Shown here piece after piece: positions 4,332 to 42,280 of a DNA stretch of 64,000 nt. The stretch is from Octopus sinensis (lineage: Eukaryota), in the NCBI RefSeq assembly GCF_006345805.1, contig NC_043003.1, forward strand, positions 115,816,001 to 115,880,000. Direction: 5' to 3'. Within the stretch, counting starts at the first letter, position 1; each line of letters begins with the position of its first letter. Made by a program: the position numbers and the translations under genes. The notes under the pieces were generated by a model. The model had not been told where the DNA came from. It saw only the letters and a list, made by a program, of their open reading frames with translations, and did no database searches.

Positions 4332-4702
4332 ATATAAAATTAGTGTACATTTAAACACAAAAGAGGTGACCCTTAATAAGCAGCCTTACATGCTTGAAGG
4401 AGCTGTCGAAATTTGAGAAATTATAATATATAACGATGAGACACGTTTTACTCTGTCTCTAAATTATATGTTAATGTTTTGGCGTAGCCACTGATGAGAA
4501 CTTCGCCTAGCAAATTATTTTATTTGCTAATAAAAGTTCGAAACCTGAGCATGGCTGTAGAAAACAAGGTAAAAGATATTATTTTTCATTCCCTTCGAAA
4601 TTGCTCTTAAATGTGGATTTGGACATTTTGACTTCTTCTATCATGCAAAGCTGCCTGTTAAGGACCGCCTCTTTTGTGTTTAAATGTGCACTAAATTTAT
4701 AT
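4332..4702. mobile_element. Element with about 80-bp imperfect terminal inverted repeats enclosing a hammerhead motif
   Basis: ATATAAAATTAGTGTACATTTAAACACAAAAGAGG... at 4332-4412 is the reverse complement of ...CCTCTTTTGTGTTTAAATGTGCACTAAATTTATAT at 4625-4702. Confidence 0.7.
4484..4558 (+). ncRNA. Type I hammerhead ribozyme motif (cleavage triplet mutated to GCA)
   Basis: Stem I GTAGCCA/TGGCTGT; CTGATGA; stem II GAACTT/AAGTTC with inner stem TAGCAAAT/ATTTGCTA; GAAAC-CTGA-GCA. Confidence 0.7.
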
Positions 4703-8846: not shown

Positions 8847-9800
8847 TTCCTTCGTAACCCAATGTACATAAAAATGCACTGGAGTCTTTAGTCCTCTATC
8901 AAGTCACAACAAGGAACTCATACATCAATCTTGCATGGGATTTCCAGTTCCCTTAAGAAATCTTTAAGTTTTAATGTGATTGAACCCAACGCTCCGATCA
9001 CCAGTGGTATCACTTTTACATTACTATCTCGCATTCCATACTGTATTGTTCTTTCCGCTTTCAATTCGGAATACTTGATTTTTTTCAACCTCTTTACTGA
9101 CAACATTCATGTCATTTGGTATGGCCACATCAATGATTTGAAAGTATTTGTCTCCCTTATTGAATATAACAATATAAGATCGACGGTGTTCGATTACACG
9201 ATCCGCCTGAAAATCATAGTCCCAGAGTATCGTTATTTTTCCATCCTTCTGCACAACATTATTTGGTACATGCTCATACCAGTTCTCTGTTACTTCATAA
9301 TGGTATTTACGCTATAAGAGCCTTATCATATTCTGTATTCCTTTCAGACTGTACACGCGTTCACATTTCAAGAAGGTCTTCGTTCCTCTTCTCCTCAGCT
9401 CTTTGGTTAAAACCTACCTTGCACATCTTTTCATCTGCAGTTACACCCATATCTTTCGTGGCATATTGCAGCAGGTCTTCATCAGTATTTATCAAATACT
9501 CGGCAAGCGTTCTCCTTTCACTGCTTATACAATGGTCTATACTAACTAGTCTTCTGCTTTCTCTTGGGCAGCACAGATTAGAACCTCCGTTTCTGGTTTT
9601 GAATCCCTTTTAGTCATCACAGCCATCTTTTTTCTCTGGCTGTGTCTGTCTTATCTTCAAATTCTCTATGAAATTGTCCAAGCATTCTTTTCTTTACCCA
9701 CTTATTTTCAGTTTCATTCGTTTTCAATTGCTTGTATATGCTTTATCTTTGCAATCTTTCATCCTACACAAGCCTGACCTTCTTACTTCTAATAATAGCG
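8847..9800 (-). pseudogene. R4/Dong-clade non-LTR retrotransposon 3' fragment (restriction-like endonuclease)
   Basis: Frameshifted ORFs give ITILWDYDFQADRVIEHRRSYIVIFNK..IIDVAIP..KY..L and VKVIPLVIGALG, typical of the RLE domain. Confidence 0.85.
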
Positions 9801-10809: not shown

Positions 10810-12390
10810 TTTTCTTCTTCTTTCAAATTTGCTTCCATTTCTTGCCGAGTGTCTTCCCGACTCCTAGGGCAAAGAAACTCATAGTATACATTGGTAGGCC
10901 ATTAAACCAAACTCAGTAGTTCGTTCCTTTTTTTTTTTTAAGTTAAATTAAAATACATGAGCAGCAACAGTTCTCACATCGACAATGCTCTTCTCAATAC
11001 GTGTGATGTACCAGTTAAGACAATCTTTTGCACTTCTTGCAGGGATGGTAAGCCAGGGATCATTCTCATATAATTTTCGGTTCCCTTCTTGATCATTCCT
11101 AGTGCTCCTACGATCACTGGTATTGTAACCGCCTTGAGATGCCACATTTTCTCAATTTCAATGAGTAGGTCTTTATATTTTCTGAGCTTGTCAAACTCTT
11201 TCTCTGAGATATTATGATCACAGGGGATGCTCATGTCGATCAATAAGCAAACTTTATTGTTTCGTCTTTCACAACAATATCTGGTTTATTGGCCTTGATG
11301 GTTCGGTCTGTATGTACTGGAAAGTCCCACAGAATGGTTACATTTACTCCTTCAGTTACAGCCTCAGGGTGGTGATTATACCACTTGTCGGCAGTTTTGA
11401 TATTGTAATGCCGACTTATTAGCCAGTGGAGATATTGGCCAACTCTGTCATGTCTTAATTTATACTCCACTGGTGCTAAGACTTTACATCCAGAGATTAG
11501 GTGGTCCACTGTTTCATCATGTCGTTGCAGAATCGGCATTTTGGGTCTGCTCCATTTTTCATCACATTGGCCTGGTAGTTCCGGGTTAATAGGCTTTGAT
11601 CTTGAGCAGCCAGGATGAAACCTTCGCTCTCTGCTTTTAGCCCTGAGCTCCGTAGTCACTGATGGGTTTGCTTCTGGTCAACATCAGTTTGTTTGCTGCG
11701 GGTCACATATTTGCCGTGCAGAGGTTTCTCCTCCCACCTATCAGCCAATTGCTCGTGCGCTTTTTTCATTGCCATCATTTTCACCTTCTTTGCAACAATA
11801 GTTGCCGTACTTCCCTCGGGTTGTTCAGTTTGGGTATCCTGCACGAGATCAATAGCAAATTTTTTGCTTTCCTTTATGATAGAATGAAGCTTCTTTCGTC
11901 TCTCGTGATTTTCCACGAGCTTTAGCATCCAGTCATTCGATATTTCGAGATATTTGGCCAGTCCAATTGTGGTTGTTTTGTAAGCTAGTTCAAATTGGAT
12001 CAGGCCTCGACCTCCTTGGGCTCTGGAAGGTAAAGGCGATCTACGTCTGCCTTTGGGTGGTGCATCCTATTACAACTCAGCAGCTTGCGTATTTTCCTAT
12101 CTATATTCTTTACTTCACTCATATTCCAGTTCAACACATTGTAGTTATAAGTAACAACTGGAACTGCTAAGGAATTTATAGCTAACACCTTGTTACGTGC
12201 ATTTAGTTCAGGACTGCACGAACTCTCCTATAACATTCCTTCCTGATTTTCTCTTTCATGCTTGCATGCTGAATACCAGAGCCTTCATTTATCCCTAAAT
12301 ATTTGTATGTTTGTTCTTGCTCAAGCTCTCTTATGACTGTGTCAACATCTAACACGACTGAATTTGTGGTCTTCACTTTCCCTTTCTGGA
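10810..12390 (-). pseudogene. R4/Dong-clade non-LTR retrotransposon, 5'-truncated (RT C-terminus, CCHC knuckle, RLE)
   Basis: AINSLAVPVVTY, HHPKADVDRLYLP, PLHGKY, PKCRFC..HDETVDHLISGC, RHDRVGQYLHW, ILWDFPVHTD..KPDIVV, IDMSIP, KYKDLLIEI, IPVIVGALG; frameshifted; flanked by (ATT)n. Confidence 0.92.
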
Positions 12391-21580: not shown

Positions 21581-22984
21581 CAGACAGCCACATGCATGAG
21601 TGTGTGCATTTGTGTGTGGTGAAAGAGAGAGAGGGCGCGAGCGTTTGCGTGTTCCTGCTTGTCAGTGAAGACATATAAGTGCGTACATGGTTATATATGC
21701 GTAGGTGTATATGTATAATATATGTATGTTATCATGTGATATAGCTGGGTTTAGAGAGTACATTACTGCTGGATGAAGGAATCCTGACGTTACTAAAAAC
21801 ACTCTGCAGGTGTGCTACATATTTATGTTGTTATAACCTTGTGGATTATCAGTGAACTGAAATTCCATACCAACGCAATTTCCTTAATCATAAATTTAGC
21901 GATGTACTTATTGCTGAAGCGTTTTCTTGTTGTTTCTTGTTGTGTTTTTAGTTTATTTACTTGATAGTTTCTTCATCATTTTTGTTTCTTTTTGACAAAT
22001 TGTCAAGCTGAAGTAGTGATCGTAAAATAGTAATATTCCCTGCCGTTATATTGAGAACAGAGATAGGACAACAACGTGTATGCTTATATGCGTACTTGCA
22101 CATAAATATGCATGGATGCATGTGAGGTATATGTATATAAGCATGTATATATTTATTTGTGTATGTGTGTGTGTAGTACAACGGAAAAAGGAAAAGCAGT
22201 GGCGCGGACCTTAATGTATTTTAAAACAATTATTCATATTTTCTCATTTATTTATGTTGCAAACACAACGCTCTTAATTTCTGTCATAAAATTTGTTGCC
22301 AACTTCATTTAAATAATATATTAGGAATGGATTTTAGTTACTTAATTATTTATATATTTACTGAAGCAGGTTGTTGTAGTTGAAATAGCTAGAATAAATA
22401 GTCAATAACCTCAGTCATTAGTGTACTAAATATGAATCTGATACTAACATTTTGGATTACCGATACATACATAATGGTAATGAGTGCGAAATGCATGGAA
22501 ACAGTCAAAGACAACGAGGCTGATATTTAAAAGCCTTAAGCAACATTGAATCAACTAGAATTCAACGGACTGCAGACATAAAATACAGAATTAATAATTG
22601 TAACAAGCAACCATTTCGTCCAAATAATCATATCCTCTACTAACTACAGTTCACAATCTCGTAAAAAAACTTCTCTGAAATTCACAAGAATTATAATTAA
22701 CAAGCCTAGATTCTAAGATAATTAACAGCCCTAGACTCTAAGATAATTCTAAGATAATTTCCACTGACTCAGTGGAAAATTCTTTTCTGTGTAGATCAAG
22801 TAGAAAGATAAATATTTTTTTCCTACACGTAAATACTGAACAGTATATATAAAGGATAAAATCCTGTTTAAGAGCAGAAAAAATTGCCGTCAACCAACCA
22901 TGAGGTAATATTACCATTACATATTACGAATCTTTTCTAAGTTTTTATATATCATGGTAGAAGTACGAATCTTTGACCATGGTC

Positions 22985-23790
22985 GGTATAATAACTTAGT
23001 GGATCGCCAAACGTGTCGATAAAATATTCTAGCGGTTCACCAAAGGATATCGATAAAATAACTTACAGGTTCGCCAAACGTGGTCGATAAAATAACTTAG
23101 CGGGTGACCGAACGTGATCAATTAAATAACTTAGCGGTTCGGCAAACAAGATCGATAAAATAGCTTAGCGGTTCGACAAACATGATTGATGAAGAGACTT
23201 AGCGCTTCGCCAAAGGAGATGGATAAAATTACTTAGCCGTTCGCGAATCGTGATCGATAGTATATCTTAGCAGTTTCGAAACATGATCGATAAAATAACC
23301 TAGCGGTTCGCCAAACGAATTCGATAGAATAACTTAGCGGTTCGCCAAACATGTCCGATAAAATAACTTAGCGATTCGGCAAAACAGATGAATAAAATAA
23401 CTTAGCGGTTCGCGAAAGAACTTCGATAAAATAACTTAGCGGTTCACCAAAACAGATCGATAAAGTAACTTAGCGGTTCGACAAATGAGATCTATAAAGT
23501 AACTTAGCGGTTCGCCAAACGAATTCGATAAAATGAAGTAGTGATTCGCCAATCACGATTGATAAAATAATTTGGAGTTTCGCCAAATGTTATCGGTTCG
23601 CCAAACGTGACCGATTAAATAAATTAGCGGTTCGCCAGACAACATCGATTAAATAACCTAGCGGTTCGCCAAAGAAATTAGATAAAATAACATTAGTGGT
23701 TCGCCAAAGGAGAACGATAAAACAACTTGGTGGTTTGCCAAAGGATATCGCTAAAATTAAACAGCAGTTCGCCAAACGTGATCGATGAAA
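22985..23790 (+). repeat. 34-bp minisatellite, about 24 units, derived from SINE family A
   Basis: Consensus TAACTTAGCGGTTCGCCAAACGTGATCGATAAAA; unit starts at 23127, 23161, 23195 give a period of 34. Confidence 0.92.
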
Positions 23791-24561
23791 GAGAAATTAG
23801 GCTTCTGAAAACCAGAAAGCTTATTCGAAGACTACAGATCTAATCCATCACTGGAACTGTAAAAATCTATGAAAATTTCTAGTTCATTATTTAAATATAT
23901 ATGTGCATATCAAGATATGCAAATACGTACATGAGAATACGTACGTAAAAGAATACAAATCTGTACTTACATACATACAAACAAACAGAAAGTACCCTGT
24001 TTTTGATGTTGAAATTCCAATGAAGGAGGCTCGGGTCTAGGTTAGAAACCGGTTCTTTGTCTATTGGCTAGAAATCTTGAATAATAACATACATACATTC
24101 TGTATACATAAATCCTACGGAAAAAGAGGCATGCCTTTTGCCTGCTAATGATAACACTACAGCATGCTGAGAAAATATGTAGTTGGAACATTTCGAATCA
24201 TTCTTTCTATATTCTCACTATGCTCGAGAAGGTCTTTTGCTTCCTGTGCAGAAGAAAAAATAACTATAAATTCTGATTAGGTGAAATTGATGAGAATTTC
24301 CTCTTATAACTGGGCCCTTTATATTTTGTATGCTATATATTTCTGTTATCAACGAAGGCTTCACCCCGAGATTATTTGCTTGTATGGAAGTTTCGCTGAT
24401 CAAATCTCATGAATTTATGCAGTTTATTCGTATCAGAGTTGCACGATGTTACCTAAAGGAGAAAAAGTGTAAGTGAGCAGCTATAGATATGGACTCAGAT
24501 GCATAATGTTCACTGTCCTTGATGATATGTCCTGCGATATTATATATATATATATATATAT

Positions 24562-26040: not shown

Positions 26041-26781
26041 TACATATGTGGGAAATGTTGTTGTGGAGTTGTTAGCTAACTCTTCCTACATCGTTTTATT
26101 GATTTTGATGAAACTTGACACATGAGTAAAACTCATGTCTGGAAACCTTATGGTATACCCAGGTTGTATAATAGGGCGCCTGGAAGAGATCCTTATATAC
26201 ATCTAATATATTTTATTTTAAAAACCAAAGGAAATAAACCATTCGTGCCTGGAAGGGATCCTTCTATATAGCCAAGGGAATTAACCCATTCATTTTCCTA
26301 AATTATTTGGTAAAATTGTAATTGAGTATGCTTATTTCTTAGTAATTGAAATGTTAGAGTTACTTTCACAACGTATCCAGTACAACCCTTAAACAATTAA
26401 ATAGTATTTTCCTAAACAATAGGTCCACTTATTTCGGTTAGTCACTTATTCTCGAATATAACAACACCAGCGCCACTGAGGGTAATATTCTCTGGGAACC
26501 CGCAAAAGCCATTTTCAGAGTTATTTAAGTTAAGCTATTATTATCTCATATCTGATTAGCCTGTTATTACATAACATATTTCACGATTTTGGTATATATA
26601 CCTTATTGGGAATCCTTAAAAACATTCCGTGTAAGACAGTTCGGCATTCTCTGTAAATGCACAAAAAGCGTTTTAAGCTCTACATACCTTGTATTGTTGT
26701 TATCGCATTAGCGATACGACTATGACAACGGACCCAAGGGATAAGCCTCGCTTTCCGGGAATTACGGGGTACGTCAGCTAG
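26037..26781 (+). mobile_element. Non-autonomous Helitron-like element
   Basis: 3' hairpin CCGGGAATTACGGG then CTAG|T; internal GATTTTGATGAAACTTGACAC motif; 5' end blurred by (TA)n. Confidence 0.65.
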
Positions 26782-26796
26782 TATATATATATATAT

Positions 26797-26910
26797 ATCG
26801 TGATCACGTGACCGACCAGTCATTCAGATGTAGTTACACATCGCTGGTCACAATGCGTTCGCATTGTTTTAGCCTTCGAATGACGCCACCCCGCTGGCTA
26901 AGCGACCAGG

Positions 26911-26913
<3 letters not shown>
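26797..26913 (-). mobile_element. SINE 3' tail fragment between (TA)n tracts
   Basis: Reverse complement matches 34346-34460. Confidence 0.8.
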
Positions 26914-26944
<31 letters not shown>

Positions 26945-26949
<5 letters not shown>

Positions 26950-27127
26950 TAGCTGACGTACCCCGTAATTCGCGGGAAGCGAGGCTTATCCCTTGGGTCC
27001 GTTGTCATAGTCGTATCGCTAATGCGATAACAACAATACAAGGTATGTAGAGCTTAAAACGCTTTTTGTGCATTTACAGAGAATACCGAACTGTCTTACA
27101 CGGAATGTTTTTAAGGATTCCCAATAA
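26945..27127 (-). repeat. Inverted duplicate of the Helitron 3' end at 26603-26785
   Basis: About 180 bp near-identical reverse complement. Confidence 0.9.
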
Positions 27128-27608
27128 AATATATATATGTATATATATATATAGGTGAGAAAGTTGGTGTGTGAAAGCACGTGGTTGGTTCTTATACAGA
27201 GAAACTCATCTCATTGAAAAAAAGAAAAATATAAAGCGATTAACTCCCTTATACCGGAAGAAATCCCTGATTACCTCTCCCTGCCTGGAACTCTTCTTTG
27301 CAATATATAACGAAGACATGACACGATGTAGGTAAATAAATTTGAGAAATTTGAAAAGTTTACACGAAACCGGTTATTTCTCCAAAAACTATGTTACTAT
27401 ACACAAAATTTTATAACATTTTTCTAACATAACGACTCAAATATATTCTTTAACCTTATAAAACAAGCCTTCTGTAGTTTTTTCACTCGTTTCTATTTAT
27501 ATATATATATATATAACCCCCCACACACACACACACACACATACACACACACGCTTATATTTGTCTTCAAAGATTCCTGATGTGATGTGAAATCCTGTGC
27601 TGAGACAG

Positions 27609-32862: not shown

Positions 32863-32955
<93 letters not shown>

Positions 32956-32957
<2 letters not shown>

Positions 32958-33767
32958 ACAATCAAGGAACGGCCATAATAGGCCATTCACCCACTAGAAA
33001 TAACAGCCAAAGCTTCAACCGCAAATAAAGATCAATTCCGTAAACAGGAGAAAATTTAAAAAAACATTTACCCTGTAATTTCTTGTACGATGCACCGTTT
33101 CGTCTGCTGTTTAATGGTAAACTAACCTGATTAAATTAAATCAAGCCAATCTTCCATAGGCCCTCAGATTCTTCAGCAAGAAATAGCCAAGTCGGAACAG
33201 ATATTTTCACGAGGCATTTCCGACCCTGCCAAGGCAATATCTGACCTAAAATTTTCAAATCGTCGCACTCGCGCCAAATTTATCGGCAGCAAATAAATAT
33301 AAGCCGTCGATTCCATTACGGAATTAACCAGAAAATTCATAATTAATCATATAGGGTGGTGAAAAAAATTTTGTAGAATTCTTTTTGCCACCAGCGGCCT
33401 AGTGGGAAAAAATTAAATAGTCGTAGACCATTTTTAAGTTCAACATCAACAATCAAGGAACGGCCATAATAGGCCATTCACCCACTAGAAATAACAGCCA
33501 AAGCTTCAACCGCAAATAAAGATCAATTCCGTAAACAGGAGAAAATTTAAAAATTTAAATTTTCTCCTGTTTACGGAATTGATCTTTATTTGCGGTTGAA
33601 GCTTTGGCTGTTATTTCTAGTGGGTGAATGGCCTATTATGGCCGTTCCTTGATTGTTGATGTTGAACTTAAAAATGGTCTACGACTATTTAATTTTTTCC
33701 CACTAGGCCGCTGGTGGCAAAAAGAATTCTACAAAATTTTTTTCACCACCCTATATTGATTAATTAT
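32956..33767. mobile_element. Hammerhead-bearing element: 491-bp monomer in partial tandem plus inverted copy (Penelope pLTR or retrozyme-like)
   Basis: 32956-33062 is directly repeated at 33447-33553; 33339-33551 is inverted at 33554-33767; (TA)n on both sides. Confidence 0.85.
33078..33184 (-). ncRNA. Type I hammerhead ribozyme
   Basis: Minus strand: ATTTCTTG-CTGAAGA-ATCTG...CAGAC-GAAA-CGG-TGCA-TCG-TA-CAAGAAAT; 8-bp stem I, palindromic loop III, GUA triplet. Confidence 0.82.
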
Positions 33768-33784
33768 ATATATATATATATATG

Positions 33785-34070
33785 AGCTCGAATCCCGGAC
33801 CGGGCTGCGTGTTGTGTTCTTGAGCAAGACACTTTATTTCACGTTGCTCCAGTTCACTCAGCTGTAGAAATGAGTTGCGACGTCACAGGTGCCAAGCTGT
33901 ATCGGCCCCTTTGCCTTTCCCTTGGATAACATCGGTGACATGGAGAGGGGAGACCGGTATGCATGGGTGACTGCAGGTTTTCCATAAAACAGCCTTGCCC
34001 AGACTTGTGCCTCAAAGTTTAACTGTCTAGGTGCAAACCCATGGTCAGTGTCTGATCGAAGGGGGTCACC
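33785..34070 (+). mobile_element. SINE family D, 5'-truncated
   Basis: Matches 1185-1461. Confidence 0.88.
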
Positions 34071-34608: not shown

Positions 34609-34819
34609 TATAATCAAAATAAGCAACAAGGATATCCAAGGTAGTGTAGTACAATCGTTTCATGCTACTTCAGTTTATTAAAAACTGTAAGTATTACATC
34701 AGTTTAAATGTTCTACATTTTAAAACTGATGTAATACTTACATTGTTTAATTAAATGAAGTAGCATGAAACGATTGTACTACACTACGTTGGATATCCTT
34801 CTTGCTTATTTTGATTATA
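34609..34819. repeat. Fold-back hairpin with about 100-bp arms next to (TA)n
   Basis: TATAATCAAAATAAGCAA...AAATG-TTCTA-CATTT...TTGCTTATTTTGATTATA. Confidence 0.88.
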
Positions 34820-35871: not shown

Positions 35872-36610
35872 ATAAAACGGTAAGATAACAAAAGAAAGAA
35901 AGAGAACTCAATATTATGTAAATAGAGGAAATTTATCTATACAATAATATGTTACATTACTCGGTAGTCAAGATAAAACTCTGAGTTTCAGATGCCGAAG
36001 TAGAAATCCACAACACCATCTCTTCGGTTATCTGGCTATTTGAAAACGCTATGAAAAAATACCGTTAAATAAAGGGAAATTACCGTGTTATAACTCTGCT
36101 TGCCTGCGTACTTATACATCACTCGCATTTTTCGTCATAAAAATTATATAAAAATACATAAGAAACACATAAAAAATATATAAAAAATATAAAAATATAT
36201 AAAATCTTCTTGGGACATAATATAGAAAGCATGTTCTATCTGTTTTCTTTAGGGGACCAAAAACGTAACAGAAATTTAGTCACATGTGGGCATGATCCGA
36301 AAAGTTCTGTCCTTGTATTTAGACATGTAGTAGGGTCTACTACATGTCTAGGGTCTACTATTTTTTATATATTTTTTATGTGTTTTTTATGTATTTTTAT
36401 GTAATTTTTATGACGAAAAATGCGAGCGATGTATAAGTACGCAGGCAAGCAGAGTTATAACACAGTAATTTCCCTTTATTTAACGGTATTTTTTCATAGC
36501 GTTTTCAAATAGCCAGATAACCGAAGAGATGGTGTTGTGGATTTCCACTTCGGCATCTGAAACTCAGAGTTTTATCTTGACTACCGAGTAACGTAACATA
36601 TTATTGTATA
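35870..36610. mobile_element. Fold-back element in (TA)n with a hammerhead-like motif in each arm
   Basis: Arms about 35938-36200 and 36360-36610, nearly identical reverse complements. Confidence 0.85.
36510..36583 (+). ncRNA. Type I hammerhead-like motif (antisense copy at 35965-36038)
   Basis: TAGCCAGATAA-CCGAAGA-GATG..GTGGA-TT-TCCAC..CATCT-GAAAC-TCAGA-GTT-TTATCTTGACTA; U4C core variant. Confidence 0.65.
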
Positions 36611-36642
36611 TATACATATATATAATACATATATATATATAT

Positions 36643-41460: not shown

Positions 41461-41579
41461 GTGTATGATATATATATATATATATTCATTGAAAAATAAA
41501 ATGTTGCAATACAAATGTATTAGTTTCCAGTAGAATGAAGCACTGTAAAAGTAGAAGTATATATATAGATATAAATATA

Positions 41580-42280
41580 GAGTAGTCGTACAACAAGGCG
41601 CCAATGTTTACTGGAAATAGCAGTCGATACATTTACGACGCTATAGTAAAGCTTCACTGCATATATACTGGCAAATATATGTGAGGGCAACAAACAAGAA
41701 AAATTTTGTTTTACCTCTCGGAAAAGCATTAGATAAATGGACAACCCCGAATCGGATAATCCAGGTTTCGGACTCTTCAAATACGTTTGTCAACGTAAAA
41801 TTGATTAGTCTTCACCAGGTGGATTTACCTGGACAATATTTCAAATGTTGCTACATCAATGCCGGTATACTCGCATGAACGCCTTACCGTTAACAGACCG
41901 AGAACAGTGAAAAAATGCTTTATTTTACTGGAATATTTTATTTTTCATTGAAAACCTTTCACTGTTCTCGGTCTGTTATGGGTAAGCGTTCAGGCAAATA
42001 TATTGGCATTGATTTGAAATATTGTCCAGGTAAATCCACCTGATGAAGACTAATCAAATTTACGATGACAAACGTATTTAGAAGAGTACGAAACCTGGAT
42101 TATGCGATTCAGGGTTGTCCATTCATCTAATGTTCTTCCTAGAGTTAAGACAAAATTTTTCATGTTTATTGCATACACACGTCTTTGCCAATATATTCGC
42201 AGTTAAGCTTTACTAGAGCGTCATAAGTGTATCGACTGCTATTTCCAGTAAATATTTGTGCCTTGTTGTACCACTACTCT
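41580..42280. mobile_element. Diverged fold-back element with about 330-bp arms and a hammerhead in each arm
   Basis: 41581-41912 is an imperfect reverse complement of 41957-42279. Confidence 0.88.
42028..42128 (+). ncRNA. Type I hammerhead ribozyme motif (antisense copy at 41731-41830)
   Basis: Stem I AGGTAAATccAC / GTccATT(C/T)ATCT; CTGATGA; stem II GACT/AGT(A/C)C; GAAACCTGGATT..GATTCAGGGTT stem III; GUU triplet. Confidence 0.65.

Follow-up and report, generated by a model that had tools for sequence, protein, structure and literature searches.

An 812-base insertion of an abundant 491-bp hammerhead repeat in a TA microsatellite, probably made by Penelope-like reverse transcription

The window (the whole 64-kb stretch of DNA that was analysed) contains an 812-base insertion, which is probably a 1.2-unit copy of an abundant, non-coding 491-bp hammerhead repeat, pasted into a TA microsatellite by a Penelope-like reverse transcriptase (RT) and endonuclease. 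The locus is likely an ordinary further member of the known class of animal non-LTR retrozymes. Taken alone it is ordinary, as both the layout and the class are already known; its value is that of an entry point to a high-copy and still variable family of hammerhead repeats.

Anatomy of the insertion

The insertion lies inside a (TA)n microsatellite, and its anatomy was read directly from the assembled sequence (Table 1). Both ends fall within (TA)n runs (~60 bases on the left, ~19 bases on the right), and with such flanks on both sides a target-site duplication is unreadable. On the hammerhead strand the order of the parts is an inverted piece of 214 bp, segment A (107 bp), segment B (384 bp, with the hammerhead, the only one in the insertion), segment A again, and the (TA)n run. 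The 107-bp repeat with a period of 491, described in the initial annotation, is exact, the two copies of segment A being identical at 107/107 bases. The near-perfect palindrome described there is likewise present in the assembled sequence, with arms of 213 and 214 bp, a 2-base spacer and one indel; the single extra base is in the right arm, and the arms are otherwise identical. The outer end of the inverted arm corresponds to +238 from the predicted cut and the 3' end of the insertion to +130, hence the two ends are 108 nt apart.

Table 1. Features of the insertion and its borders (positions in the window)
Feature	Position	Strand	Remark
(TA)n run at the element's 3' end (sense = minus)	32896..32955		putative insertion target
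Segment A, downstream copy, 107 bp	32956..33062	-	ends 130 nt past the predicted cut, at the putative start of reverse transcription; small predicted hairpin ~12 nt before the 3' end
One full 491-bp monomer	32956..33446	-	
Predicted type I hammerhead ribozyme with 68-nt extended stem II	33078..33184	-	
Segment A, upstream partial copy, pseudo-LTR-like	33447..33553	-	starts 23 nt past the preceding unit's cut site
Palindrome left arm	33339..33551	-	belongs to the direct copy
Palindrome centre	33552-33553		AT-rich self-complementary patch
Inverted 5' copy, 214 bp, one extra base	33554..33767	+	head-to-head with the direct copy
(TA)n run at the other end	33765..33783		~3 bases shared with the end of the inverted arm

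The inverted arm could be a fold-back artefact of sequencing or assembly on a real repeat copy, and the near-perfect arms with their 2-base spacer are what such an artefact would leave; moreover, no strand-change joint is seen among the joints listed for the sequencing runs described below (9 entries, and 12 of 35). We regard this as very improbable. The arms differ by one base, and the inverted arm ends in the TA run, followed by unrelated genomic sequence, with no mirroring of the flank. Palindromes of this type are usual for Penelope-like insertions as they are described in PMC3846280, and as to the joints, the other 23 of the 35 lie outside the listed set and contigs can show the presence of such a joint but not its absence.

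The 64-kb window is eukaryotic in character, with many microsatellites and SINE-like repeats, the SINE sequence suggesting an octopus as host. A search of it for a second copy of the 491-bp element gave none, and the tRNA scan gave 0 genes. The right flank of the insertion (33784-34070) is a SINE-like repeat that lacks its head in comparison with a copy at ~1113-1543.

The 491-bp unit

The unit has a GC content of 37%, and its longest stop-to-stop frame is 57 codons, with no Pfam match in the unit. In the Pfam search of 150 frames of the window (147 taken from the 150 longest of 256 frames that passed the filter, and 3 from the element), 4 weak matches were obtained, all below the curated cut-offs and none of them to an RT or a GIY-YIG domain, so that no autonomous partner bearing either domain is found among these frames.

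The minus-strand monomer is predicted to fold well both as a linear molecule (z -4.5, 0/100 shuffles as stable) and as a circle (z -4.2, 0/40 shuffles); the plus strand is also predicted to fold well (z -3.7). Within the unit, upstream of the hammerhead, two adjacent motifs on the minus strand (33278-33252) form a candidate internal promoter; we take them to resemble an E2F site and the CHR cell-cycle element. A short intron after stem I (GT at ~33070 to AG at ~32994, minus strand) was considered and rejected, with no matching joint among those listed for two RNA-like sequencing runs.

The predicted hammerhead ribozyme

The hammerhead is predicted on the minus strand as three helices around a complete type I core (CUGANGA, GAA, the A15.1-U16.1 pair and an NUH cut triplet, here GUA). 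The open stem I has 8 bp and is followed by CUGAAGA at 33176-33170. Stem II starts with an A•C mismatch at 33169/33102 (positions 10.1-11.1), followed by 4 pairs; the whole stem II region comprises 68 bases with a long inner hairpin, and then GAAA. Stem III has 4-5 bp and is closed by UGCA. The predicted cut lies between 33086 and 33085.

Three loose hammerhead matches occur in the window, of which only this one has all three stems, and a hammerhead this good was obtained in 0/100 block-wise dinucleotide shuffles of the whole window. In the initial annotation it had been ranked as the best hammerhead of the window. The Rfam model Hammerhead_1 (RF00163) gives a weak match of 18 bits against a gathering score of 34 (E 0.1, search of 301 bases), the low score being due to a 58-base insertion in stem II relative to the model. 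In the Rfam search of the whole window there are 151 matches at E<=1, with no hammerhead among the 150 listed.

The hammerhead pattern is the minimum-energy fold of a 126-base stretch (z -3.0, 2/200 shuffles as stable) and is also part of the minimum-energy fold of the whole monomer. In the monomer ensemble the pair probabilities of stem I are 0.34-0.49, and the U11.1 allele (see below) raises these computed values to 0.56-0.81. The stem III strand can form, by computation, a 12-bp self-dimer of -17.5 kcal/mol.

The 10.1-11.1 pair is described as the most conserved one after A15.1-U16.1, with a natural U-U reported at this place (PMC3088659). By analogy, the A•C mismatch need not abolish the activity, and likely lowers it. 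It is predicted that this copy, with its single hammerhead, cannot set free a monomer or circle unaided.

Another motif that resembles a type I hammerhead, though a degenerate one, is observed at 4485-4556 (plus strand), with a 6-bp stem I, CUGAUGA, G10.1-C11.1 and a long stem II hairpin, and with C instead of U at 16.1. It lies between diverged inverted repeats (4332-4402 and 4632-4702), shows no sequence kinship with the main element, and is possibly an older Penelope-type end.

The family in sequencing runs

Among 24 sequencing runs, 19 were marked as carrying the element (11 studies, 7 organism labels), and 11 contain at least half of 50 sampled words of it. The unit (33010-33500) was aligned to the contigs of four of the 24 runs, two of the DNA type and two guessed to be RNA; the best-matching run may be the window's own sample. 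In the DNA runs 13,779 and 6,156 contigs aligned, and in the runs of guessed RNA status 112 and 69. All 29 bins of the unit are covered in each of the four runs.

The depth at the unit-to-unit junction (33446/33447) is close to that of its neighbours in the DNA runs (ratios of 0.85 and 1.16) and amounts to 0.62 and 0.50 of it in the two RNA-like runs. The share of contigs that continue into unlike sequence is 0 in both DNA runs, and 0.04 and 0.01 in the RNA-like runs. The 491-bp unit thus closes head-to-tail on itself family-wide, a pattern in which long arrays and many dispersed partial tandems look the same. The depth of the repeated segment relative to the rest of the unit, taken as a gauge of a fixed 3' end common to the copies, is inconsistent among the four runs (1.42, 0.56, 1.62 and 0.73).

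From the contig counts we infer a family of at least thousands of copies, summed depth not being equal to copy number. The family is also heterogeneous, with only 26–29% of the DNA contigs at least 99% alike to the copy in the window. In these runs the 491-bp element is a very abundant and heterogeneous family with no visible attached coding body. The insertion was initially annotated as young, and the comparison of its identical or nearly identical repeats and arms with a family in which 71-74% of the aligned DNA contigs are below 99% supports a recent-looking event.

These data bear on the possibility that the unit is the pseudo-LTR (pLTR) end of an autonomous Penelope-like element, the locus being a heavily 5'-truncated copy with tandem and inverted stumps. 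The layout and the hammerhead would fit, Penelope insertions are mostly 5'-truncated according to a recent preprint (bioRxiv 10.64898/2026.07.22.740005), and one contig of run X14 has a 255-letter loose end at 33138. Nevertheless, the junction depth close to that of the neighbours and the zero share of unlike run-on in both DNA runs, together with the frames of at most 57 codons and the lack of a Pfam match in the unit, make this origin improbable, and a repeat that is non-coding as a whole is preferred.

In runs X1 and X2, low-depth joints within 33010-33500 show units with internal deletions, the skips being 35-241 bases long; a more diverged subfamily, in which the 5' strand of stem I is different, is suggested by loose ends. 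Loose ends in (TA)n at the 3' end of the element were looked for, with none among the 24 of 170 loose ends listed. The element had 0 matches among viral contigs, and the family motif had 0 among metagenome contigs. With a relaxed, gapped motif, 23 loci were obtained in the metagenome contigs, and these were rejected as chance matches: 0/23 have a stem I of more than 2 pairs, and none are alike beyond the motif.

Ribozyme variants across the family

The variant analysis covers 40 of 54 variant rows, with 9 variable positions in the hammerhead. At N7 (33172) all four bases occur across the family. The other 12 core positions show no variant among these 40 of 54 rows, an avoidance of the core that is not significant by itself for 9 variable sites (P 0.33).

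Position 11.1 is U in 53, 72, 77 and 100% of the depth in the four runs, which makes an A10.1-U11.1 pair. The majority state of the family at the first stem II pair is therefore A-U, and G-C as the family state is ruled out by the same values. The initial annotation, which had called this pair off-consensus, was correct in that this copy carries A•C, and wrong in taking G-C as the reference. As most family copies have A-U, restoring G-C is the wrong comparison for the cleavage assay that was proposed there.

The first pair of stem I (2.1-1.1) and the fifth pair of stem II vary among G-C, G-U and A-U. In 8/8 comparisons the frequency on the U side is equal to or higher than that on the A side, as needed to avoid A•C. 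A minor variant at 33127 (0-9%) breaks a predicted pair. The variants observed in the family fit a conserved ribozyme, the paired changes being unphased in the contigs. Together, the pair-keeping variants and the free N7 suggest selection at the RNA level, with the reservation that single G-C to G-U changes are expected from transitions anyway.

Such selection speaks against a satellite-like repeat that spreads at the DNA level (by unequal exchange, extrachromosomal DNA circles or repair of fragile TA tracts) and carries the hammerhead as a relic. So does the polarity of the insertion, in which the inverted piece is on the 5' side of the hammerhead strand, as in retrotransposition. A satellite would agree with the closed head-to-tail unit at very high depth, with the many further palindromes in TA runs of the window, and with the finding that 8/9 predicted frog retrozyme dimers tested were without cleavage (bioRxiv 10.64898/2026.07.22.740005). 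On balance, we consider it the most improbable of the explanations weighed here.

Proposed origin by Penelope-like reverse transcription

For the preferred origin, we infer cleavage, the template, the mobilising enzyme and the fold-back as follows. A tandem source locus would be transcribed, and a borrowed Penelope-like enzyme would nick a (TA)n run. Priming of the cDNA would take place within the RNA, at a point 130 nt past a hammerhead cut site, and 598 nt would be copied through one uncut hammerhead. Copying would end 23 nt short of the preceding cut site, where the hammerhead-made 5' end would lie. The new strand would then fold back at the AT-rich self-complementary patch, copy 213 nt of itself, and join the other TA end via a few shared bases.

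Behaviour published for Penelope-like elements would account, by analogy, for the TA target, the 3' end past the cut, the overlap and the mirror arm. Their insertions are described as partial tandems that favour microsatellites and often bear at the 5' end an inverted copy that is itself 5'-truncated; a tail of 30-40 bp is optional, and non-autonomous elements with head-to-tail copies are mentioned (PMC8557442). Head-to-head palindromes at the inverted junction are read as self-priming, with an antisense template in the model (PMC3846280). A purified Penelope-like protein cuts AT-rich DNA and starts the cDNA inside the RNA, past the hammerhead, the cleavage of which is dispensable in vitro (PMC11167929). 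Its internal start lies 111-118 bp inside the ORF; with the cut located at +26, this is ~85-92 nt beyond it, vs +130 here. Animal non-LTR retrozymes are derived from Penelope pLTRs in the 2026 preprint (bioRxiv 10.64898/2026.07.22.740005), and tandem hammerhead repeats are regarded as non-autonomous Penelope derivatives (PMC7229834; bioRxiv 10.64898/2026.07.22.740005).

The retroelement reading of the initial annotation is retained as to the kind of element (retrozyme or Penelope pLTR) and the 491-bp unit, which is family-wide. It had also taken a more-than-unit copy whose ends do not match the cleavage site as a mark of reverse transcription around a circle or along a tandem pLTR transcript. 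A more-than-unit copy is not diagnostic of a circle, because it is the standard Penelope-like layout (PMC8557442, PMC3846280), and the internal start of Penelope RT, downstream of the hammerhead (PMC11167929), would explain why the insertion ends miss the cut site.

As for the template, a linear tandem transcript is a slightly better fit than a circle, and we give it about even chances. It is preferred because the stop 23 nt before the cut site is predicted by a linear transcript whose 5' end was cut and whose weak internal site was not, but not by a circle. A circular template would mean the same element and the same borrowed Penelope machinery, with a 491-nt circular RNA ligated at the cut site and reverse-transcribed 1.2 times round; such an origin is possible, with clearly lower chances. 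The two copies of segment A are identical over 107 bases despite the heterogeneity of the family, and this exact identity favours one molecule read twice (P 0.34, 0.12 and 0.04 at 1, 2 and 3% unit divergence). In addition, the cDNA crosses an intact cut site, the monomer is predicted to be stable as a circle, and circles were demonstrated for coral, mussel and axolotl retrozymes (PMC7229834). However, Penelope-like elements generally form partial tandems, even in clades that lack hammerheads (PMC8557442), and a circle would need this A•C-mismatched hammerhead to have cut. As to direct signs of circles, the RNA status of the two RNA-like runs is only guessed, and contigs cannot reveal circles.

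The idea of a circular template is the published retrozyme hypothesis, hammerhead-made circles having already been proposed as templates for more-than-unit copies (PMC4209133, PMC7229834). The wider picture would be that a very abundant 491-nt retrozyme family of what seems to be an octopus genome, with an unusual hammerhead, is expressed in the form of RNA circles, and that reverse transcription round these circles is recorded in its young dispersed insertions. We hold this to be doubtful; if true, the circle-template model for tandem insertions of Penelope-like elements could be tested on natural copies. Thousands of copies with a short unit would allow counting the insertion endpoints relative to the cut site, and such counts separate the circle model (2014/2020) from the internal-initiation model (2024).

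Comparison with known systems

The element resembles the animal non-LTR retrozymes (Cervera & de la Pena 2020, PMC7229834; Li, Clavereau & Pollet 2026, bioRxiv 10.64898/2026.07.22.740005) in being non-coding, multi-copy and below 50% GC, and in having a head-to-tail unit of a few hundred bases with one type I hammerhead. The predicted RNA is, as in these elements, highly self-paired with the ribozyme free to fold. The unit of 491 bp is slightly longer than the 150-450 bp given in PMC7229834 and falls within the 51-972 bp of the 2026 preprint. In contrast to the retrozymes as described there, the hammerhead has a stem II extension of 68 nt and A-U in place of G-C at the base of stem II. An 'active' retrozyme is defined in the preprint by two consecutive hammerheads; with one, the locus is a solo or 1.2-mer derivative and not an 'active' retrozyme.

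With the insertions of endonuclease-bearing Penelope-like elements (Arkhipova et al. 2013, PMC3846280; Craig et al. 2021, PMC8557442; Frangieh et al. 2024, PMC11167929) the locus has in common the partial-tandem pseudo-LTR, the head-to-head inverted copy at the 5' side with a palindromic junction, the hammerhead near the 3' end, the 3' end past the cut, and, at this one locus, the AT-rich, (TA)n target. It differs from them in that its ends are 108 nt apart, in place of a 30-40-nt tail, which is an optional feature in that literature, and from autonomous Penelope-like elements in having no RT or GIY-YIG reading frame.

With the Penelope-associated hammerhead variants that have a palindromic stem III (Cervera & de la Pena 2014, PMC4209133; Rfam RF00163), the predicted ribozyme shares the CUGANGA / GAAA / GUA core and the palindromic loop 3. 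The minimal variants of PMC4209133 have shorter stems than the 8 bp of stem I and the 4-5 bp of stem III here, and the extra base between positions 9 and 10.1 of those variants is not present. In the literature search no description of a cephalopod hammerhead repeat was found; repeat libraries or the supplement of PMC7229834 may list the family.

Other repeats and reading frames in the window

Five other long palindromes are present in the window (35931-36617, 26593-27137, 41579-42280, 34609-34819 and 1665-2248), with arms 76-98% alike. Several of them adjoin TA runs, and in the palindrome at 26593-27137 the arms are separated by a SINE-like fragment and TA runs. They are candidates for foldback DNA elements or further Penelope-type inversions.

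Two broken reading frames on the minus strand (10974-12066 and 9024-9311) have no Pfam match; they resemble the C-terminal part of a non-LTR retrotransposon, with its zinc knuckle and restriction-like endonuclease. A diverged tandem array with a period of ~100 or 170 bases is observed at 22980-23805.
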